Source of the DNA: a virus | Lineage: Duplodnaviria > Heunggongvirae > Uroviricota > Caudoviricetes | Direction: 5' to 3' (one strand) | DNA length: 38,614 nt | Virus record (IMG/VR): IMGVR_UViG_2554235189_000017 | Span: 1 to 38,614 of that record | Part shown: piece by piece, positions 1 to 32,813 of the stretch | Layout of the letters: each line of letters starts with the position of its first letter | Position numbering within the stretch: position 1 is the first letter of the stretch | Notes under the pieces: generated by a model | What the model saw: the letters and a program-made list of their open reading frames with translations, nothing else | What the model was told of the DNA's origin: nothing | Databases searched by the model: none | Position numbers and translations under genes: made by a program

Positions 1-207
1 TTTACGCACACCGTATACCTGGTGATTTTCATCGTATACGCGCTGTATCTCTTTCTTCAGCCAGTCATCGTGCTGCGCACGGGCACTGCGTTTATCCGGA
101 TGATGTCGCTGTTGCTGACAATGGTAATACGTTGACGGGGCAATATGCAGTTCGCTGCATACCGGTCCGACCCCGTACTGCTCACGCAGCTTATCCAGCA
201 GTGGCAT
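1..207 (-). CDS. IS3-family transposase OrfB, N-terminal part (partial, continues past window start)
   Basis: ATG at 207-205 overlaps orfA stop; translation [23 protein letters not shown]... resembles IS3-family OrfB N-termini. Confidence 0.7.
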   Translation of the reverse strand, partial: MPLLDKLREQYGVGPVCSELHIAPSTYYHCQQQRHHPDKRSARAQHDDWLKKEIQRVYDENHQVYGVRK

Positions 208-533
208 TATTTTTTCCAGAGGCGGTCGAACTCCGCCTTCGCAAAATAAGCGGAAGCCTGGCGAAGGATATCGTTACTGCGGCGCAGTTCACGATTTTCA
301 CGTTCCAGCTCTTTCAGACGCTGACGTTCAGCGGTGGTGAGTCCACCATCACCACTCCCGGTATCCCGCTCATGCTGGCGAACCCAGACACGCAGAGTCT
401 CCGGCGTACAGCCAATCTTTGGGGCAATGGAACAAATTGCCGCCCACTGTGAGTCATATTCATCCTGACTTTCCAGAACCATACGAATCGCCCGCTGACG
501 GACTTCGGGGGAAAAACGAGTATTTTTAGTCAT
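207..533 (-). CDS. IS3-family transposase OrfA (HTH DNA-binding subunit)
   Basis: 108 aa [22 protein letters not shown]...[30 protein letters not shown], recalled as near-identical to IS629/IS3411 OrfA. Confidence 0.85.
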
Positions 534-3091: not shown

Positions 3092-3106
3092 TTACCTTTC
3101 AGGTAA
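3092..3106. promoter_or_regulatory. Operator-like palindrome TTACCtttcaGGTAA in the divergent tailspike / tum-like promoter region
   Basis: Perfect TTACC-N5-GGTAA, one of about 12 copies of this motif in the window. Confidence 0.5.
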
Positions 3107-3143
3107 TTTGCAAAACGTGCTGGATAGCAAACAAATTATTTGA

Positions 3144-3163
3144 TACTGTATATTTATACAGTT
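3144..3163 (+). promoter_or_regulatory. LexA (SOS) box TACTGTATATTTATACAGTT upstream of the Tum-like gene
   Basis: Perfect CTGT-N8-ACAG with AT-rich spacer, about 20 nt upstream of the ATG at 3183. Confidence 0.75.
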
Positions 3164-3182
3164 ATTGCATGGAGAAGATAAG

Positions 3183-3440
3183 ATGCAGCGGTATCACTAT
3201 CCACTGGAAGACGGATTTACCGAAAGGATTCACACGCCGGGAGGCGTCAGGTCACTGGTGGAGGGATCGCACTTGATGAAATTACTCCGGGATCTCGATA
3301 AGGATGGATTTAATGTCGATGGCCCACTTGCCGAACTGACTGCACTGATTAACTACGTCACCAGCTCACAGATGACTATGCAGGATCTGCAAACACATCT
3401 CGACTATTGTGCCGAACAATTACGAAAACAAACCAGATAA
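3183..3440 (+). CDS. Small SOS-regulated antirepressor-like protein (Tum-like), 85 aa
   Basis: GGAG RBS 8 nt upstream; LexA box immediately upstream; sequence LMKLLRDLDKDGFNVDGPLAELT...DLQTH aligns with the C-terminus of the downstream Bro-N antirepressor (LMNLLNQLQEDGHDVSGAAAELT...DIQTH). Confidence 0.6.
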   Translation: MQRYHYPLEDGFTERIHTPGGVRSLVEGSHLMKLLRDLDKDGFNVDGPLAELTALINYVTSSQMTMQDLQTHLDYCAEQLRKQTR

Positions 3441-3454
3441 GATTTGAAATCACC

Positions 3455-3508
3455 AAGAGGAGTGCTTATATTTACCTTTGCGGTAAATTTACATCGCACT
3501 CCTCTTGT
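3455..3508. repeat. 12-bp inverted repeat (CAAGAGGAGTGC / GCACTCCTCTTG) enclosing an operator-like TTACCtttgcGGTAA (3472-3486)
   Basis: Read directly; a second hairpin CGGGCACTGG/CCAGTGCCGG follows at about 3520-3544. Confidence 0.6.
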
Positions 3509-3577
3509 GCCATAGTAATCGGGCACTGGCAAAATCCAGTGCCGGGATTGGCGTCCCGAGTTACTAAGTGGCGCATA

Positions 3578-3600
3578 CCACGCCAGACGTGGTTTTTTTA
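3578..3600 (+). terminator. Putative rho-independent terminator (CCACG-loop-CGTGG + T7)
   Basis: Short GC stem followed by TTTTTTT. Confidence 0.45.
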
Positions 3601-3755
3601 TGCGTTAAGCACAGCCATATCCGAATTATGGTGGGCTGGGCAGGGGTCCGAAAGGACGCCGGTACCACTTAGGCCGGTACGCCAACCTTGTCCAGTTCAC
3701 CACCAGTAATTGGCGTTGCGGTGGTGATTAAAATCACTAAGTGGAGATAACCACC

Positions 3756-4466
3756 ATGGCTAATGCTCAAACTGCCATCTTCAAATTTGAATCTGTTAAC
3801 CCTATCCGTTCCATCATTATCGATGGCCAACCATGGTTTGTAGCCCAAGACGTTTGTAGTGCGCTGCGTATCCAAAACGTCACCCAATCACTTGAAAAAC
3901 TGGATGATGATGAAAGGTCTATGTTCAACATAGGGCATGAACATCGTGCAATTTTTGATAGCCGAGTAAAAGAGATCAACATCATCTCCGAGTCAGGCCT
4001 CTACACACTGATCCTCCGCTGCCGCGATGCGGTGACACCAGGCACTATCCCCTACCGCTTTCGTAAATGGGTTACAGGTGAGGTTCTTCCTCAGATCCGC
4101 CGCACCGGAAGTTACATTAAAAACTCGCTCCCGCAGGAAGAACGCATAAAGATGGTTGCCGACCAGGTAGCCAACGCCACAGCATCAGCAGTGATGCAGG
4201 CAATGAAGATAGAGAACAAAACCTACAGTGCCCCACTGAAGCCCGGCTACCGTAGCCTGATTCATTCGCCGTCTGGTGTTCTCGGCCTGACTGAGAACTC
4301 ACTGCTGATGAATCTGCTGAACCAGTTACAGGAAGACGGGCATGATGTATCGGGCGCAGCGGCGGAGCTGACCACCATGTTCTGCTACATCGTCGGTGTG
4401 AGCAAATGCCTGCGTGATATCCAGACGCACGCGGAGTACATCAACGACAAGGCAGGGTTCTTCTGA
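3756..4466 (+). CDS. Phage antirepressor, Bro-N/AntA-like N-terminal domain with antirepressor C-terminal domain
   Basis: GGAGA RBS then ATG 3756; N-terminus AIFKFESVNPIRSIIIDGQPWFVAQDVCSAL is Bro-N-like. Confidence 0.75.
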   Translation: MANAQTAIFKFESVNPIRSIIIDGQPWFVAQDVCSALRIQNVTQSLEKLDDDERSMFNIGHEHRAIFDSRVKEINIISESGLYTLILRCRDAVTPGTIPYRFRKWVTGEVLPQIRRTGSYIKNSLPQEERIKMVADQVANATASAVMQAMKIENKTYSAPLKPGYRSLIHSPSGVLGLTENSLLMNLLNQLQEDGHDVSGAAAELTTMFCYIVGVSKCLRDIQTHAEYINDKAGFF

Positions 4467-4532
4467 CATGACGGCGGCACAGGGATGTGCCTTTAAATAA
4501 TTCTGTACAGATTGCAGGTGAATAGCGTACTA

Positions 4533-4547
4533 TTACCCCAAAGGTAA
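4533..4547. promoter_or_regulatory. Operator-like palindrome TTACCccaaaGGTAA upstream of the AT-rich two-gene operon
   Basis: Perfect TTACC-N5-GGTAA. Confidence 0.45.
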
Positions 4548-4664
4548 GAAAGTTGATTTGTAACATTTTAGTTTGTAGTTACCGTGATGGTTTTGCTGCA
4601 GAAAGTTAACTAGTCAAAATCACACCGTATGTAAGTCACGTCTGTTCCCGTATGGGAGGATGAT

Positions 4665-4883
4665 ATGTTTAAATTTGATATGCAACTCAACCAAAACTAT
4701 GCCTCTTTTTACCATCCAGAAACTGGTAAAGCTGTTTTCGTTGACTCTTTCGATAATGAAGAATTTGATATCAGAATTGGGACCCTACGCCAAAGTAAGC
4801 ATGTTGCTACTGTACGTGCATCCAATGATGATGAATTAAATCAAAAAATAAGTGAGGCGACCTCCCGTTATCTATGTCTATAA
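4665..4883 (+). CDS. Hypothetical protein (72 aa), first gene of an AT-rich two-gene operon
   Basis: GGGAGG RBS then ATG; ends 10 nt inside the next ORF (translational coupling); AT-rich versus flanks. Confidence 0.55.
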   Translation: MFKFDMQLNQNYASFYHPETGKAVFVDSFDNEEFDIRIGTLRQSKHVATVRASNDDELNQKISEATSRYLCL

Positions 4884-5251
4884 CAGAACAACAACTCATT
4901 GATCTTGAGGATGAGATTAACGAGATCTTGCAAGAAGATGCGGCAAGAATTCACTTTTCATTTCATGCAGCATATGAACGCCTGAACGACGAGAGGAACA
5001 AACCGCCAATTACTCTTGCTGAGCTTGAAGATGTGTTTAAATCGTTTATATCTGCACATCTGCAGACTGTTTTGGATTTTGCCGAAGGTACAACTTTCAC
5101 CATAAAGTGCAACAAAAGCGCCCTTCATTTTCCTTGCGCCATTGTACACGAAAGAGAGTTTGGGAAAACGTGGATTATCCAAAACGTCATTACAGCCATG
5201 AGGAAAGTGGGATTCAAGTCTAAAGATTCTATTATCCTCGAAGTTAATTAA
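4874..5251 (+). CDS. Hypothetical protein (125 aa), second gene of the AT-rich two-gene operon
   Basis: Overlaps upstream ORF; acidic helical N-terminus; followed directly by a terminator. Confidence 0.55.
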   Translation: MSITEQQLIDLEDEINEILQEDAARIHFSFHAAYERLNDERNKPPITLAELEDVFKSFISAHLQTVLDFAEGTTFTIKCNKSALHFPCAIVHEREFGKTWIIQNVITAMRKVGFKSKDSIILEVN

Positions 5252-5273
5252 GCCCGCGCCGCGGGCTTTTTTG
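5251..5273 (+). terminator. Rho-independent terminator (AGCCCGCGCCGCGGGCT + T6)
   Basis: GC-rich hairpin plus TTTTTT immediately after the stop codon. Confidence 0.7.
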
Positions 5274-5344
5274 TGGACGAAACAAAAGTCAGTGCTACAC
5301 TCATTGACGCCACATTGAGGTGGCTTATAGATGGAAATTTCACA

Positions 5345-5506
5345 ATGAAAAAAGCATTTGCTGCACTGTTCGTTTTGTTGTCTCTGGTAGCTTCAACTCA
5401 GGCCTTTGCTGGTCGTTGTCAGCACGACAGCGATACTGCCGCTGACGGATCCCGCTGCGGTGGGCGTTCTGCGGATTCCCGCCCGGGCGGCGGTGGCATT
5501 CGTTAA
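5345..5506 (+). CDS. Small secreted peptide: Sec signal peptide plus ~31-aa Gly/Arg-rich two-Cys mature peptide
   Basis: MKKAFAALFVLLSLVASTQAFA has classic n/h/c regions with an AxA cleavage site; no lipobox. Confidence 0.45.
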   Translation: MKKAFAALFVLLSLVASTQAFAGRCQHDSDTAADGSRCGGRSADSRPGGGGIR

Positions 5507-5512
5507 AAACAA

Positions 5513-5528
5513 GGCCGCGAAAGCGGCC
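5513..5528. terminator. Hairpin GGCCGC-GAAA-GCGGCC between convergent genes (possible bidirectional terminator)
   Basis: Perfect 6-bp stem with GAAA loop; T-rich run on the minus-strand side. Confidence 0.4.
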
Positions 5529-5529
5529 T

Positions 5530-5541
5530 GTGACATGTCAC
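5530..5541. repeat. 12-bp perfect palindrome GTGACATGTCAC (copy 1 of 3)
   Basis: Exact 12-mer also at 23012-23023 and 25277-25288, each within 0-5 nt of a stop codon. Confidence 0.8.
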
Positions 5542-5543
5542 GT

Positions 5544-5834
5544 TCATTTTCTGAATGATAGCCGTTCGAAAAATGATGACATTCCACCGCAGACAATAGC
5601 AAAGATGATCCCACCAAAGAAGAGAAGGCCAGCCTGCCACCACTCCCACCGCCATACATCCACAGCACCAACCATACCAACAATCGCTCCAACAAATGGA
5701 ATATAGCTCACGATGAAAGCAATGGGGGCTGCAATTATCCAGTGCAATCCCCACCATGATTCAAGCCCAGCCATAATTGCTGCCAACTGAAAAAGACCAA
5801 CGACGATATAAACAATGAATCCTATAGCTTGCAT
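5544..5834 (-). CDS. Small multi-pass membrane protein (96 aa); holin-like or lysogenic-conversion candidate
   Basis: AGGTGA RBS; about three hydrophobic segments; last gene of the minus-strand virion operon. Confidence 0.6.
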   Translation of the reverse strand: MQAIGFIVYIVVGLFQLAAIMAGLESWWGLHWIIAAPIAFIVSYIPFVGAIVGMVGAVDVWRWEWWQAGLLFFGGIIFAIVCGGMSSFFERLSFRK

Positions 5835-5846
5835 GTAGTCACCTAT

Positions 5847-6020
5847 TTACCCAGTAAAAATCAGAGGCCTCCCCTCAATAAGGCTTGCAACAAGAACTAT
5901 TCCCTGCACAACAAAGATGAACCAGCAAATAGCTTGAGTCTGAGGGTTAAGAAAATATTTGTAGCGGTCAATAAATAACAACCCACCAGAAATTATCACA
6001 CTCAAAATAATTAAAAACAC
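5847..6020 (-). CDS. Possible small membrane protein (~57 aa) with non-ATG start
   Basis: Open frame between the stop of the 824-aa gene and the 96-aa gene; hydrophobic; start codon (GTG/TTG) uncertain. Confidence 0.25.
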   Translation of the reverse strand: MFLIILSVIISGGLLFIDRYKYFLNPQTQAICWFIFVVQGIVLVASLIEGRPLIFTG

Positions 6021-6029
6021 AACACTTCC

Positions 6030-8504
6030 TTATTGCGGAGTGACATCCTGAGGTCGCCACCAGTATGTCTGATTAAACTCTTTCTTCGAACGTTGCTCCA
6101 TTTTACGCAAATAGCCTGGTGAAAAATACTCCTGCATCTGGTTAAAGATCATGTGATCGAGAGCCGCCTTCAAGTACCAGAGATTCGCACCTGGCATCAA
6201 ACCTTTCCCCAGCTTCACCAGATCACCACCAGTCTGCTCACTCTTCCCTTCCACAGCATTTAACGGTATGCCCTGAGCAATCTTCACTACGTCATCAACC
6301 AGACCAGCTACCGGGCCAAGCATCGACGCCAGCGCGCCGCTTCCGTACCTAGTGTGATCTGACAATAAAAAGTCACCGTAAAGGCCAAGACCACCACCTT
6401 TCAGTAGAGCACCAAGCCAGAATTTTGCGGCATCTTCTCCTGTCATCTCTCGAGGATTACGACCAGACGCAAGGTCGTTAAGTTGCTGCGACAAAGCGCC
6501 AAGAATGGTCGTACTGGCAATAAACGTCGCAATATATGCCGCACGCCCACCAGCAGACGGCATACCCATAGCGCGTGACCAGTGACGCATAACAACCGAG
6601 ATAGGGAACGATTTAAACAGGAAAACACTTCTCGTTAATTCACCTTTCCATGTTCCACGCTGAATACCAGAACCGGTTATCAGTTGCTCACGAGCTCCCG
6701 GTGTAATAACAGCCATATCAACTTCTTCAGTTACGGCACCGAGCAATTTACGCATTGCCTCAAATTTCACGCGCTCAGGCTCACCAAGATGTTTAACTGC
6801 TGAATCAGGGATACGCATAATGCTTTCCGGTGTCAGCATCGTATTATTACCGTTCCCCCAGTCCTCCTGTTGCGCCAGCTTCCATACGCTCCAGTCTGTG
6901 TCAGTAATCCCTTTGCTTTTCAGGATACGAAAATCAGAGTCATCGAGGCTACGAAGGTCTGGTGTCAGTGACACTACTTCTCCCAGGCTTCCCATCATGG
7001 TTACGCCATAGGCGCGCTTGTGCGCATCTGACCATGCTGTAAGCCCACTGGCACGCATTACCGCCGTTGCCGCCCAACGAGACACTGACGGCCCCATATT
7101 ATCCATCGCCCAGCGGTTAACGCTGCCAAGTAGAGATTCCATCGCCAGACCAGCGCGGCGCGCCCGCGCAAGTTCTGTACGGTTCGTTGGGTCCATAGCT
7201 TCAAGCTGGTTGCGGAATAACTGGTTCATTGGAAGGTTGGTAACCTTCGCAGACAGATACATGGTTCCAAGATCAGAGAACGATGACAGCAACGCGGATC
7301 CGAGTCTGCTGGCAACCAGCCAGTTGCGGATATTGTCAGACCATCGCGCGATGTGCGGATTCGCTACAGGCTGTGTCTTTCCGGAAATAAAGTTGTACAG
7401 ATTCTCTGTGTTGTTCGCCAGCCGCTCGACTTTACCGGTTTTACTCGGGTTAGCTGTTGCCGTTTCTGCCTTCACCTGATCAAGAAGAGAGCGGAAAACA
7501 TGATCGGGGTTTGGGCCATATGTTTCCACCAGTGCAATATCTTTACTGATACCTTCCAGGTGACCGACCATGATTTCCCATAGAGAGCGATCGCCATAAA
7601 GTTGCTGATATTGCAGATAGGAATCTGCATCTTTGAAATGTATCTGTCGTGATGCATTACCACGGTTAGCACGTGCGCCGGAAATTCGCATTCCGGTATC
7701 AGTAAGCTTATTCAGCCCACCAGTAGCGATCGTGTTATAAGCCTCTCCAAGAAATGCAGACAACTCGGCATCGTTCATCAGTTGTCCATCGGCTCGGGTA
7801 TAATATTTGCGATCCAGCTTACCTATAACATCGCTAACCCATTTATCTTTTGATACCGCCCCAACCTTTTCCATAGAATGATGTTGAGGGATCCCCCAGT
7901 TTTCGAGATAGCCAATGTCCCCACCAGCATCATTAAACCGGCGGCGCAGCAGCTCTGTAACTTCTCTCCACGCCTTAGCACCTTTTCTTGCTTTAGCATT
8001 GCCAGTATTTTGCCCCCGCATTTCATATACCAGGTCACGTACGCCCGCTTCATCTTCAAACAGACCAAAAAAGCGGGGATCAACTGCTTCGAATGCCTCC
8101 TGCAATTGACTCAATGCATAATCACGAGTGGCTTTTGTTCTGGATTCAACAGAGAGGAAATTCGATTTACCGTCTGCATTAAAAGCAATAGTACGGTTAA
8201 GAGCGCCAAGTTTCCCATCAGCCCCTTGATAGTTATTGATAAATTTATCCAATCTCTGACGTGCGGCTATAGTGAGGGCCACACGACGTTTCTTTAATGC
8301 CGCTTCTCGCTGTAATTCTTCAGATGCCAATTGTGCTGCACGATACAACCGTTCTGATTCGGAAAGTTGTCGCCACGACATCGGGTCATCACGAGCAATG
8401 GAGCGCATATTTCGATAAATGCGGTCTTCAATGTTCTGTATTTCTCGCGCCGTTAACGTGCGCTGCGCCGCCTGCTGGACCGCTTGTATACATTCCTGTC
8501 TCAT
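6030..8504 (-). CDS. Internal virion / ejection protein (824 aa)
   Basis: Large ORF in a tandem run of large virion genes after the tubular proteins, as in T7/epsilon15-like core gene sets. Confidence 0.55.
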   Translation of the reverse strand: MRQECIQAVQQAAQRTLTAREIQNIEDRIYRNMRSIARDDPMSWRQLSESERLYRAAQLASEELQREAALKKRRVALTIAARQRLDKFINNYQGADGKLGALNRTIAFNADGKSNFLSVESRTKATRDYALSQLQEAFEAVDPRFFGLFEDEAGVRDLVYEMRGQNTGNAKARKGAKAWREVTELLRRRFNDAGGDIGYLENWGIPQHHSMEKVGAVSKDKWVSDVIGKLDRKYYTRADGQLMNDAELSAFLGEAYNTIATGGLNKLTDTGMRISGARANRGNASRQIHFKDADSYLQYQQLYGDRSLWEIMVGHLEGISKDIALVETYGPNPDHVFRSLLDQVKAETATANPSKTGKVERLANNTENLYNFISGKTQPVANPHIARWSDNIRNWLVASRLGSALLSSFSDLGTMYLSAKVTNLPMNQLFRNQLEAMDPTNRTELARARRAGLAMESLLGSVNRWAMDNMGPSVSRWAATAVMRASGLTAWSDAHKRAYGVTMMGSLGEVVSLTPDLRSLDDSDFRILKSKGITDTDWSVWKLAQQEDWGNGNNTMLTPESIMRIPDSAVKHLGEPERVKFEAMRKLLGAVTEEVDMAVITPGAREQLITGSGIQRGTWKGELTRSVFLFKSFPISVVMRHWSRAMGMPSAGGRAAYIATFIASTTILGALSQQLNDLASGRNPREMTGEDAAKFWLGALLKGGGLGLYGDFLLSDHTRYGSGALASMLGPVAGLVDDVVKIAQGIPLNAVEGKSEQTGGDLVKLGKGLMPGANLWYLKAALDHMIFNQMQEYFSPGYLRKMEQRSKKEFNQTYWWRPQDVTPQ

Positions 8505-22098: not shown

Positions 22099-22113
22099 TT
22101 ACCTTTAAGGTAA
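22099..22113. promoter_or_regulatory. Operator-like perfect palindrome TTACCTTTAAGGTAA next to a TTGACA hexamer (22072-22077)
   Basis: 15-bp perfect palindrome, part of the dispersed motif family. Confidence 0.5.
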
Positions 22114-22435: not shown

Positions 22436-22512
22436 GTGGCATTAGCTCAGTTGGACAGAGCAACCGCCTTCTAAGCGGTTGGTCGCAGGTTCGAATCCTG
22501 CATGCCACGCCA
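22436..22512 (+). tRNA. tRNA-Arg (anticodon UCU), phage-encoded
   Basis: Hand-folded cloverleaf: acceptor GTGGCAT/ATGCCAC, D-arm GCTC...GAGC, anticodon loop CTTCTAA, T-arm GCAGG-TTCGAAT-CCTGC, encoded CCA. Confidence 0.85.
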
Positions 22513-22598: not shown

Positions 22599-22674
22599 CA
22601 GCAGGACGCCATTGCGATGACTTCATGCTGTAAACCAGTACAGCCACGGAAGGCATAACTCATTGCTTCCAGTT

Positions 22675-32228: not shown

Positions 32229-32813
32229 ATGAAAAGTATCCAGGACGTCCGCAGGCAAAATCTCAACGACTTGATCGACCGTGAATTCAATGGTGTTCAG
32301 ACGCGGATGGCAGAAAAACTTGGAACTCAGGCAAATCTGGTAAACCGCTGGGCTCTTGGCAAGAAGGTTATCGGCGACCAGGTTGCGCGAAAAATTGAAG
32401 CTGCCGCCAATAAACCCCGTAACTGGCTTGATATCGATCGCTCGCTTTCTCAGGAAGGTTTTCAGCCTGTCGGCCCAAGCGACATTGGTCAGCTGGCGGC
32501 TCACAACCTGGAACGCTGGATGAGCGAAAGCCGCGACCTTTCAACACAGGGAAAACTTCACCGCGCATCCGGCGTCGCCCAGGTGACAATCAGCCGCCTG
32601 TTAAACAATGAGGTCAGCGTTTCCATTTCCACCCTGGAGAATGTTGCATCCGCATTCGGGCGTCACGGATATGAACTACTGATTCACCCGCACGACCCTG
32701 CGACTATCAACTATGACCGCTCGCGCTACGCATTGTTACCCGAAACCGAGAAAGCAAAGATCGAAAGTTACATTGAATTTGTCATCAACCAGAACGAAAA
32801 AAACAAACAATAA
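32229..32813 (+). CDS. CI-like prophage repressor with two HTH regions and no recognisable autocleavage domain
   Basis: 194 aa; HTH-like segments near residues 20-60 and 110-150; no peptidase S24 motifs seen. Confidence 0.6.
   Translation: MKSIQDVRRQNLNDLIDREFNGVQTRMAEKLGTQANLVNRWALGKKVIGDQVARKIEAAANKPRNWLDIDRSLSQEGFQPVGPSDIGQLAAHNLERWMSESRDLSTQGKLHRASGVAQVTISRLLNNEVSVSISTLENVASAFGRHGYELLIHPHDPATINYDRSRYALLPETEKAKIESYIEFVINQNEKNKQ

Follow-up and report, generated by a model that had tools for sequence, protein, structure and literature searches.

The window analysed here is a stretch of 38,614 nucleotides, and its source phage is a phiV10/epsilon15-like (Uetakevirus) E. coli prophage, an integrated podovirus. 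The region under study, 3441-3755, lies between the gene of an 85-aa small antirepressor and that of an antirepressor with an N-terminal Bro-N domain, Ant (Table 1). The first-pass annotation had described it as densely structured and free of any credible ORF. All of the elements that it listed were found, and the + strand RNA of 3441-3760 has a folding energy of –137.1 kcal/mol, compared with –96.8 ± 5.2 kcal/mol in dinucleotide shuffles (z = –7.7; 0/100 shuffles as good). The region is overlapped only by mechanical ORFs of 34-100 aa, and the small ORF from AUG 3628 ends after 14 codons. A protein-coding reading was rejected, as the 100-aa ORF at 3407-3709 has no Pfam match and TAA 3565-3567 shuts the frame that Pfam Phage_ASH matches in a relative. 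The Rfam scan suggested in the annotation returned isrK and the C4 antisense RNA, both above their gathering scores. The noted hairpins are not independent; they are mostly parts of these two curated RNA families.

Table 1. Features of the region 3441-3755 and its flanks (positions in the window)
Feature	Position	Strand	Description
Operator copy TTACCTTTCAGGTAA	3092-3106		Exact TTACC-N5-GGTAA, upstream of the small antirepressor gene
LexA box CTGTATATTTATACAG	3146-3161		Small antirepressor promoter region; AT-rich consensus spacer
Small antirepressor, 85 aa ("Tum-like")	3183-3440	+	phrog_450, E = 3.5e-47; 89% identity to SPC32H/SPC32N Ant
Upstream promoter-like site TTGAAA-17-TATATT	3444-3472	+	10/12 consensus matches; –10 adjoins operator; putative function
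Extended palindrome centred on operator	3454-3507		Perfect 12-bp arms, 3454-3465 / 3496-3507
Operator TTACCTTTGCGGTAA	3472-3486		Presumed phage-repressor site, between the two promoter-like sites
Promoter-like site TTTACA-17-(TGc)CATAGT	3488-3516	+	Predicted start ~3523, the isrK 5' end
IsrK-type small RNA / C4 target-mimic leader	3523-3599	+	Rfam RF01394, 67.2 bits, 77 nt
isrK hairpin 1	3523-3542	+	Part of IsrK-type RNA
isrK hairpin 2	3543-3558	+	Displays a1 UUGGCGU (3548-3554) in its loop
b1 CUAAGUGG	3564-3571	+	Single-stranded linker of IsrK-type RNA
Intrinsic terminator	3577-3593, U7 at 3593-3599	+	3' end of IsrK-type RNA
C4-type antisense RNA	3624-3707	+	Rfam RF01695, 66 bits
C4 hairpin 1 GUCC-GAAA-GGAC	within 3624-3707	+	C4 fold
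C4 hairpin 2, GCCGGU arms	loop b' CCACUUAG at 3665-3672	+	C4 fold
a' ACGCCAA	3679-3685	+	Unpaired, 3' of C4 hairpin 2
a2 UUGGCGU	3710-3716	+	Complementary to a'; P1 a2 position, a few nt past C4 end
Leader hairpin GGUGGU (3720-3725) : ACCACC (3750-3755)	3720-3755	+	Encloses b2 and Shine-Dalgarno; putative role
b2 CUAAGUGG	3737-3744	+	Overlaps ant Shine-Dalgarno GGAG (3743-3746); AUG 3756
Antirepressor Ant, regulated gene	3756-4466	+	N-terminal Bro-N PF02498, E = 3.4e-19; phrog_130

The region opens with the 12-bp inverted repeat enclosing an operator-like palindrome that had been pointed out before. The inner arms, TATATTTACC and GGTAAATTTA, lie at 3467-3476 and 3482-3491 around the TTACC-N5-GGTAA core. 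This motif has 10 exact copies in the window and 3 more with one mismatch, where 0.54 would be expected, and four copies flank the HTH repressor gene at 32229-32813 (a 194-aa HTH_3 protein). Such a distribution suggests that it is the presumed operator of the phage repressor. Among relatives, the half-sites are conserved and the 5-nt spacer is variable. The counterpart of the extended palindrome is an 18+18-bp palindrome in phiV10, and in the Klebsiella phage ST11-OXA245phi3.2 the outer arms are changed yet complementary (ATGGGTT / AACCCAT). The left arm is gone in TL-2011b and EC.W1-9, where the upstream DNA has been replaced. Hexamers equivalent to the upstream promoter-like site are readable in phiV10, phiv142-3, ZX5, EC.W1-9 and a Klebsiella phage. 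Directly upstream of the isrK 5' end, a promoter consensus was obtained across 78 related loci, and Gifsy-1 has a promoter at the equivalent position, where the operon is driven from the isrK promoter.

The isrK match covers the full model, with 67.2 bits against a gathering score of 50. The related c4-a1b1 motif (RF03163) was matched at 3510-3562 with E = 1.6e-9 and 44.3 bits, below its gathering score of 46.7. The "second hairpin" of the first-pass annotation (3522-3529 / 3536-3543) and its terminator-like hairpin with a T7 run were both confirmed and are parts of isrK. The terminator pattern is thus present, and the downstream promoter-like site places the predicted start at the other end of the RNA.

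The C4 match extends over model positions 1-87 of 87 on the + strand and scores 66.0 bits (gathering score 45). Mature C4 is predicted at about 3630-3704 (75 nt), its ends being taken from alignment to the annotated P1 c4. The fold, a long closing stem around two hairpins, was reproduced by both the minimum-free-energy and the centroid structures. The direct repeat GCCGGTAC noted earlier is present at 3658-3665 and 3673-3680 and makes up both arms of C4 hairpin 2. The a' and b' sites are essentially unpaired in C4, with opening costs of 0.02 and 0.40 kcal/mol, respectively.

The leader of ant follows. Its hairpin belongs to the RNAalifold consensus of 12 relatives, with covariation that is weak and mostly one-sided. 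A GTGATT..AATCAC palindrome ahead of the antirepressor RBS does occur (3724-3729 / 3732-3737). As a conserved element it was rejected because relatives do not have it; the conserved piece near it is GGTGGTGA at 3720-3727. The 3' strand of the C4 closing stem (3697-3704) is complementary to these same positions, read as GGUGGUGA. The b2 site adjoins the Shine-Dalgarno sequence and the start codon in all related loci examined. The counterpart of ant in phage ZX5, ORF4, favours lytic growth when overexpressed (PMC9782041).

The two RNAs and the leader are connected by complementarity. The a' site is exactly complementary to both a1 and a2 over 7 nt, and b' to both b1 and b2 over 8 nt. Pairing energetics were derived from opening-energy and duplex calculations: the duplex energies are –9.3 kcal/mol for a'/a2 and –9.9 kcal/mol for b'/b2, and a2 and b2 are partly buried in the leader hairpin, with an opening cost of 8.85 kcal/mol. 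When C4 was paired with the ant leader or IsrK in RNAcofold, there was no net gain (ddG ~0, shuffles as good); the method was rejected as a test because loop-loop (kissing) contacts cannot be represented in it.

The three-way complementarities co-vary in about 80 related loci, P1 and Gifsy-1 included. The b code is CUAAGUGG in the window, CUAAAAGG in phiV10 and CUACAAAGG in Kp4865-1, and the a code is UUGGCGU in the window, UUGGUCU in phiv142-3, UUGAGAC in Kp4865-1 and UUGACAG in P1; in each case the C4 loops match. The b' loop, for instance, is CCACUUAG in the window and CCUUUUAG in the phiV10 code. Among phage loci, 27 non-identical ones have an a triple that is exact over 7 nt or more, and mean b complementarity was 7.0 / 7.6 nt within the own locus against 4.4 / 4.7 nt across loci. 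The first pattern collection of phage loci missed close relatives and retrieved distant environmental members, about one third of these being chance matches without the architecture. The scan of species-representative genomes gave many chance matches in non-Proteobacteria, and its counts are limited to loci with an a triple. It yielded 53 loci with an exact 7-nt a triple; 38 of the 53 have an exact b triple too, and in those 38 b2 adjoins GGAG and ATG.

The region as a whole is homologous to P1 immI and to the Gifsy-1 isrK locus. In the annotated P1 immI the order is Oc4, P2c4/P1c4, a1, b1, c4, a2, b2, icd and ant. The P1/P7 immI series of operator, two tandem promoters, a1, b1, C4, a2, b2 and regulated ORF recurs in the window in the same order, with a presumed operator and promoter-like sites. 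The a2-b2 distance, start to start, is 29 nt in P1 and 27 nt in the window. Both C4s are matched by RF01695, a' and b' are unpaired, b2 lies at an RBS and the product is an antirepressor. There are also differences. The window has no icd-like ORF between C4 and ant, so that b2 overlaps the ant Shine-Dalgarno itself, and its a1/b1 leader forms an entire IsrK-type RNA that ends in an intrinsic terminator of its own. TTACC-N5-GGTAA and an HTH_3 repressor stand in place of C1 of P1. P1 is a plasmid prophage whereas the window phage is integrated, and the similarity between Bro-N Ant and P1 Ant1 is not significant (E = 0.14).

The isrK-orf45-anrP locus of Gifsy-1 has isrK (RF01394), a gap of about 25 nt, a C4-matching stretch, a2, GGUGGUGA, b2, a Shine-Dalgarno sequence and the antirepressor AUG, as the window does. 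Its promoter is directly upstream of isrK, as is the promoter-like site of the window, and the intrinsic terminator of IsrK permits readthrough in Gifsy-1. However, orf45 of Gifsy-1 is an open frame of 45 codons whose stop overlaps the start of anrP, whereas its equivalent in the window is closed. AnrP is unrelated to Ant of the window, isrJ lies downstream in Gifsy-1 with none downstream in the window, and the b specificity is of the UCACCG type in Gifsy-1 and CUAAGUGG in the window. P22 resembles the window in that a small RNA, sar, controls an antirepressor. P22 sar is transcribed opposite to ant, across the ant start; in the window, the Rfam matches and promoter-like sites are all on the + strand. 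An antisense RNA like sar on the – strand of the window was also weighed, but was rejected because that strand has neither a promoter-like site nor an Rfam match. The satellite phage P4, likened by description, has a processed small RNA, CI, that derives from an untranslated leader and pairs with complementary sites up- and downstream of itself (seqA / seqB / seqC), and IsrK was called a structural homologue of P4 seqA by the Gifsy-1 authors (PMC4825925). P4 CI differs in acting through premature transcription termination of replication genes, not on an antirepressor RBS.

On these grounds, 3441-3755 is very probably a P1 immI-type RNA immunity cassette that precedes the gene of Bro-N Ant in a phiV10-like prophage. 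Its predicted parts are a promoter guarded by the repressor, a small RNA of the IsrK type and an antisense RNA of the C4 type. Sequence analysis shows the layout, with a pair of promoter-like sites around a copy of the presumed operator, the 77-nt IsrK-type RNA, the C4-type RNA and a2/b2, and the functional roles suggested for them are carried over wholly from P1 and Gifsy-1. Readthrough past the IsrK terminator would produce transcripts carrying C4 and ant, and C4 would be excised from them, its P1 counterpart being a processed 77-nt RNA. The a' and b' sites of C4 would then pair with a2 and b2, in cis or in trans, so that ribosome binding would be blocked and Ant would not be made. In P1, Ant synthesis is repressed by c4 RNA (PMC8546580; also the notes of the P1 GenBank record). 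With no upstream coupling ORF, C4 would act directly on the ant RBS, unlike in P1 (icd) and Gifsy-1 (orf45). With Ant off, repression of the prophage would persist, and a newly arriving phage whose a/b specificity is the same could not express its own Ant. The phage repressor at 3472-3486 may limit transcription of the cassette, like C1 at Oc4 in P1.

Both sites of the target are also present on the short IsrK RNA, which could therefore titrate C4 as an anti-antisense RNA; in the P1 GenBank record the role of a1/b1 is annotated as "putative". In Gifsy-1, compensatory mutations proved pairing of IsrK nt 28/31 (in a1) with nt 159/162 (in a'), and anrP translation rose over 100-fold when IsrK was given in trans (PMC4825925). 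The proposed titration is consistent with this trans activation of antirepressor translation by IsrK, although the authors' own activation model is a structural switch at the orf45 RBS with translational coupling, not C4 derepression (PMC4825925). The layered control of the antirepressor anticipated in the first-pass annotation, possibly with a small RNA, thus takes the predicted form of an operator-guarded promoter, a terminated IsrK-type RNA and C4 loops matching the ant RBS.

That model leads to a different reading of the window, in which control is positive only: a readthrough mRNA kept translationally silent by its own intramolecular structure would be opened by short IsrK in trans, and the C4-matching stretch would be part of the leader or a small ORF and no separate antisense repressor. 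Gifsy-1 is the sole close homologue studied experimentally, it has isrK followed by the same C4-matching stretch, and its positive control is backed by compensatory mutations and 30S footprinting (PMC4825925). However, the orf45 equivalent, which has 37 codons in phiV10 and ZX5, meets a UAG in the b' loop here and is 14 codons long, and translational coupling to ant is therefore impossible in the window. Positive control alone would also leave the covariation of a2/b2 with a'/b' in about 80 loci unexplained. Moreover, Gifsy-1 makes a stable processed RNA, STnc1160, downstream of IsrK, which its authors liken to P4 CI (PMC4825925), and the present analysis places STnc1160 over the Gifsy-1 C4-matching stretch. 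Positive control as the whole explanation is accordingly considered unlikely.

Less probable again, and quite improbable in our judgement, is attenuation of the P4 CI type as the main mechanism, in which C4 would pair with nascent a1/b1 and a2/b2 and bring about premature termination, either Rho-dependent within ant or at the IsrK terminator. The b1 site ends 5 nt ahead of the IsrK terminator stem, and C4 and c4-a1b1 belong to one Rfam clan. Rho-dependent polarity on ant from untranslated icd in P1 also counts for it. The Gifsy-1 authors drew a parallel to P4 seqA / CI / seqC and suggested that STnc1160 may modulate termination (PMC4825925). Against it, the + strand shows no terminator-like site from a2 to the start of ant. 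The overlap of b2 with the Shine-Dalgarno sequence recurs in all loci examined, which indicates ribosome occlusion as the conserved contact. Attenuation and a translation block are mutually compatible. As for independent DNA or RNA hairpins without any trans-acting RNA, or a decayed, non-functional remnant, the palindrome at 3454-3507 is indeed best read as a DNA operator, and the hairpin with its T7 run is terminator-like. Yet both Rfam matches are full length, the match at all six a/b sites is perfect and the region is conserved at about 98% in many genomes, so that this reading is scarcely credible. The RNA immunity cassette remains the preferred explanation.

The cassette lies behind a second antirepressor gene. 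The product of 3183-3440 is an orthologue of the SPC32H "ant: anti-repressor protein" and a paralogue of the C-terminal domain of Bro-N Ant (43% identity, Ant residues 157-228); both antirepressors would share the same presumed repressor-binding domain. CTGT-N8-ACAG has three matches in the window against 0.57 expected, and the copy ahead of this gene is a perfect LexA box. SPC32H ant has TTACC-N5-GGTAA at the equal upstream distance. The earlier label "Tum-like" therefore holds as an analogy of wiring, with a LexA box upstream of an SPC32H ant orthologue, but not as homology: tblastn of the small antirepressor against 50,697 phage records matched 35 records, all Uetakevirus-like, and homology to Tum is unsupported because phage 186 is absent from the matches. 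A LexA-controlled small antirepressor was reportedly described by Kim and Ryu in 2013 for the SPC32H / epsilon15 group. SPC32H shares with the window the orthologous small ant gene, the presumed operator and the upstream LexA box. It differs in having a membrane-protein gene directly after small ant and no isrK-C4-Bro-N ant cassette, and the cassette is therefore an add-on of the E. coli phiV10 group. Since there is no intrinsic terminator between the LexA-controlled gene and isrK, SOS transcripts would enter the isrK region. It is conceivable, if doubtful, that the cassette stands in series with the SOS antirepressor, the a1/b1 decoys on SOS transcripts titrating C4 and releasing Bro-N Ant.

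Of 5,426 complete E. coli genomes, 534 contain the region. The 3100-4500 query was matched over 80% or more of its length in 216 genomes, and its best match had 95-99% identity in 204 records. Features so far annotated in the region are, for example, ORFs named "Ash family protein", a hypothetical protein on the minus strand and a "terminator" standing alone. In phiV10-like phages and hundreds of E. coli genomes, where it has been annotated wrongly or not at all, the region can now be given an annotation. The region is well explained and ordinary, as this cassette type is already known among phages, and the finding does not overturn current understanding. P1 c4 with a1/b1, the Rfam c4-a1b1 motif and Gifsy-1 IsrK with STnc1160 are unified as one portable RNA cassette that precedes unrelated antirepressor genes. 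One phage carries two antirepressors with a common domain and separate predicted inputs, LexA and RNA. If the series wiring with the SOS antirepressor is true, induction would have two stages, a trigger and a latch, and the RNA "lock" would carry an a/b code that varies among the window phage, phiV10 and phiv142-3, which are otherwise near-identical. The observed difference in code among close relatives predicts heteroimmunity at the level of the antirepressor, as between P1 and P7.

Rfam was scanned over the whole window at gathering thresholds, as the first-pass annotation had proposed, and two adjacent plus-strand matches, isrK and the C4 antisense RNA, were obtained between the small antirepressor gene and ant. 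A third family, c4-a1b1 ("a1, b1 targets of C4 antisense RNA"), scored slightly below its threshold. The feature is a typical member of the C4/IsrK (P1 immI-type) family, previously without annotation. Neither the phiV10 record nor RefSeq holds an RNA annotation over this region, and the sole phiV10 feature there, a "putative rho-independent terminator", is the isrK terminator. All of the elements listed in the first-pass annotation were found again. Given the Rfam matches, its second hairpin corresponds to isrK helix 1 and its T7 terminator to that of isrK, and its GCCGGTAC direct repeat supplies both arms of C4 hairpin 2. The region is indeed highly structured (plus-strand RNA 3441-3760, -137.1 kcal/mol; shuffles, -96.8 +/- 5.2; z = -7.7), and the ORF listing and Pfam gave no credible ORF within it. 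The observation was thus confirmed, and its interpretation, layered control of ant possibly including a small RNA, is supported and made precise. The mechanism of the cassette should be largely readable from its homologues.

Features of the cassette and of related sites in the window
Feature	Position	Strand	Remark
LexA box	3146-3161		consensus
Small antirepressor ORF	3183-3440		85 aa
Promoter-like site, upstream	3444-3472		
12-bp inverted repeat	3454-3465 / 3496-3507		perfect; outer arms
Palindrome inside the repeat	3467-3476 / 3482-3491		
Operator-like palindrome	3472-3486		
Promoter-like site, downstream	3488-3516		
c4-a1b1 (RF03163)	3510-3562		44.3 bits; threshold 46.7
isrK helix 1	3522-3529 / 3536-3543		second hairpin
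isrK (RF01394)	3523-3599	+	67.2 bits; gathering score 50; full model
a1 UUGGCGU	3548-3554	+	
b1 CUAAGUGG	3564-3571	+	
isrK terminator	3577-3593, 3593-3599		G+C-rich hairpin, then T7
C4 (RF01695)	3624-3707	+	66.0 bits; gathering score 45; full model
Direct repeat GCCGGTAC	3658-3665, 3673-3680		arms of C4 hairpin 2
b' CCACUUAG	3665-3672	+	inside C4
a' ACGCCAA	3679-3685	+	inside C4
a2 UUGGCGU	3710-3716	+	
Leader hairpin	3720-3725 / 3750-3755		GGUGGU / ACCACC
GTGATT..AATCAC	3724-3737		
b2 CUAAGUGG	3737-3744	+	
Shine-Dalgarno GGAG of ant	3743-3746	+	AUG at 3756
TTACC-N5-GGTAA copies	3092, 3472, 4533, 22099, 25166/25184, 29766, 29828, 32111/32159, 32871, 32933		
HTH_3 protein	32229-32813		194 aa

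The window is a phiV10/epsilon15-like (Uetakevirus) E. coli prophage. Its segment 3100-4500 shares 97.9% identity with phage HEMP4; identity to phiV10, ZX5 and TL-2011b is about 92-94% across about 81-83% of the segment. Among the 5,426 complete genomes of E. coli, 534 contain it. At the left end of the window, an IS element adjoins the tail-spike gene; an ALIL pseudoknot (RF01497, 120 bits) at 136-252 (-) overlaps an ORF at 207-533 (-) with a predicted product resembling OrfA of IS3-family transposases.

The a' and b' segments are essentially unpaired in the C4 fold (opening energies, 0.02 and 0.40 kcal/mol), and their duplex energies are -9.3 and -9.9 kcal/mol, respectively. The order isrK then C4 was present in all 14 fetched related phage loci except P1, which scores as c4-a1b1. 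Among these loci, a change in one copy of a site is accompanied by changes in the other two.

Joint variation of the three copies of the a and b sites
Locus	a1/a2	a'	b1/b2	b'
Window	UUGGCGU	ACGCCAA	CUAAGUGG	CCACUUAG
phiV10	UUGGCGU	ACGCCAA	CUAAAAGG	CCUUUUAG
phiv142-3	UUGGUCU	AGACCAA	CUAAGUGG	CCACUUAG
Klebsiella phage Kp4865-1	UUGAGAC	GUCUCAA	CUACAAAGG	CCUUUGUAG
P1	UUGACAG	CUGUCAA	GUUAGUG	UCACUAAC

The b sites were compared among 27 non-identical loci, from phages and environmental sequences, whose a triple is exact over 7 nt or more. The maximal exact complementarity of b zone and C4 loop averaged 7.0 nt (b1) and 7.6 nt (b2) within the same locus, against 4.4 and 4.7 nt across loci. In species-representative bacterial genomes, an exact 7-nt a1/a'/a2 triple occurred in 53 of 113 motif-bearing loci; in 38 of these 53 the b1/b'/b2 triple was exact as well, b2 lying immediately next to GGAG and ATG. 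The comparative evidence that C4 would pair with the site pairs on either side of it, upstream and downstream, is strong, and at the level of sequence it shows the cassette of the window to be a typical, intact member.

The P1 record gives the immI order as C1 operator Oc4, P2c4, P1c4, a1, b1, c4 RNA, a2, b2, icd and ant1. The window follows it with an operator-like palindrome, two promoter-like sites, a1, b1, C4, a2 and b2. In contrast to P1 and Gifsy-1, it lacks a coupling ORF: the frame from a conserved AUG in the C4 5' stem (3628) ends after 14 codons at a UAG within the b' loop, while its equivalent has 37 codons in ZX5 ("ash family protein") and 45 in Gifsy-1. In the window, C4 would therefore have to act on the ribosome-binding site of ant itself. 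Short ORFs over C4, such as that of ZX5 (L004 1395-1508), carry the label 'Ash family protein', and Pfam Phage_ASH (PF10554) matches a translation through isrK-C4 of Hafnia phage yong2 (L010 988-1671, E = 1.2e-12); this frame is closed in the window (3523-3567). The Phage_ASH family, or at least such annotations, may partly be translated RNA genes. RefSeq also has a minus-strand hypothetical protein overlapping C4 and the ant 5' end in a related locus (L002 3570-3839; window about 3669-3887), which is probably spurious.

In Gifsy-1, a C4 match (34214-34131) covering "orf45" comes after isrK (34316-34240, minus strand); beyond it lie a2, GGUGGUGA, b2 and the anrP Shine-Dalgarno sequence and start codon AUG. 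An isrJ homologue, present in Gifsy-1, was not found in the window. The Gifsy-1 operon is driven by the isrK promoter, and the fraction of transcripts passing the IsrK terminator gives a translationally silent mRNA; IsrK in trans raises anrP translation more than 100-fold (PMC4825925). Pairing of IsrK G28/G31 with C162/C159 was confirmed via compensatory mutations (PMC4825925), and our alignment places these residues in a1 and a', respectively. The same authors placed the processed RNA STnc1160 downstream of IsrK and drew the analogy to P4 seqA, CI and seqC (PMC4825925); we take the Gifsy-1 C4 match to correspond to STnc1160. The simplest combined reading, in which C4 would repress ant through its pairing and IsrK would be a target mimic able to titrate C4, is in our judgement probable, the decoy step being its least secure element. 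The structural-switch model of the Gifsy-1 authors is kept as the rival.

The operator-like palindrome belongs to a motif, TTACC-N5-GGTAA, with 10 exact and 3 one-mismatch copies in the window against 0.54 expected. Four copies, in pairs, flank the HTH_3 protein, which we take as the putative phage repressor because its position and description match the ZX5 repressor. The small-terminase gene and the small antirepressor gene each have a copy ahead of them (the latter at 3092), ant is followed by one (4533), and the replication region also contains the motif, a dispersed layout that recalls P1 C1. Near the copy at 22099, the prophage carries a tRNA gene (22436-22509, +, Rfam 73 bits) and a LexA-box-like CTGTAAACCAGTACAG (22628-22643). 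Among relatives, the half-sites are constant and the 5-nt spacer is variable, as would be typical of a protein operator. The operator is preceded by the -10 element of the upstream promoter-like site and followed by the -35 element of its downstream counterpart, so that bound repressor would hinder both, in a predicted parallel to P1 Oc4. The outer arms prolong the palindrome (18+18 bp in phiV10); in a Klebsiella phage they have another sequence with complementarity kept. Since the left arm is missing where upstream DNA was replaced, the arms are not essential to the cassette.

Both b2 and the Shine-Dalgarno sequence lie within the leader hairpin before ant. RNAalifold recovered this hairpin from 12 relatives with only weak covariation, and any role of it is putative. 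The invariant GGUGGUGA (3720-3727) has alternative partners, UCACCACC on the 3' side of the stem that closes C4 (3697-3704) or AUAACCACC just before the AUG (3747-3755). This could be a switch tying C4 folding or processing to the accessibility of the ribosome-binding site. Directly past the ant stop codon, a hairpin GGCACAGGGATGTGCC followed by TTTAAAT (4467-4500) may be the operon terminator; it also matched RsmV weakly, below threshold (16.9 bits, E = 0.039).

The small antirepressor is 89% identical to "ant: anti-repressor protein" of SPC32H/SPC32N, a system (Kim and Ryu 2013) cited in a review among antirepressors made upon LexA self-cleavage (PMC7380047). It is a stand-alone paralogue of the C-terminal domain found in the Bro-N Ant (3756-4466; 43% identity to residues 157-228). 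From this identity and the LexA box, the phiV10 group appears to have two antirepressors sharing one domain under different inputs, LexA and the RNA cassette. No terminator-like site was found on the plus strand between the small antirepressor gene and isrK, so SOS-driven read-through into isrK is possible; a speculative reading, in which the cassette is coupled to the SOS-controlled gene, builds on this. Compared with Salmonella phage SPC32H, from which the isrK-C4-ant cassette is wholly absent, phiV10-type phages of E. coli have an insertion (3441-6030). This block lies between the small ant gene on one side and the genes for the membrane protein and the large internal protein on the other, and it holds the cassette and several small ORFs (4665-5251 and others), preceded by the operator copy at 4533. 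Ant is unrelated to P1 Ant1 and Gifsy-1 AnrP. Therefore, judged from these protein comparisons, the RNA cassette is portable and precedes unrelated antirepressors.
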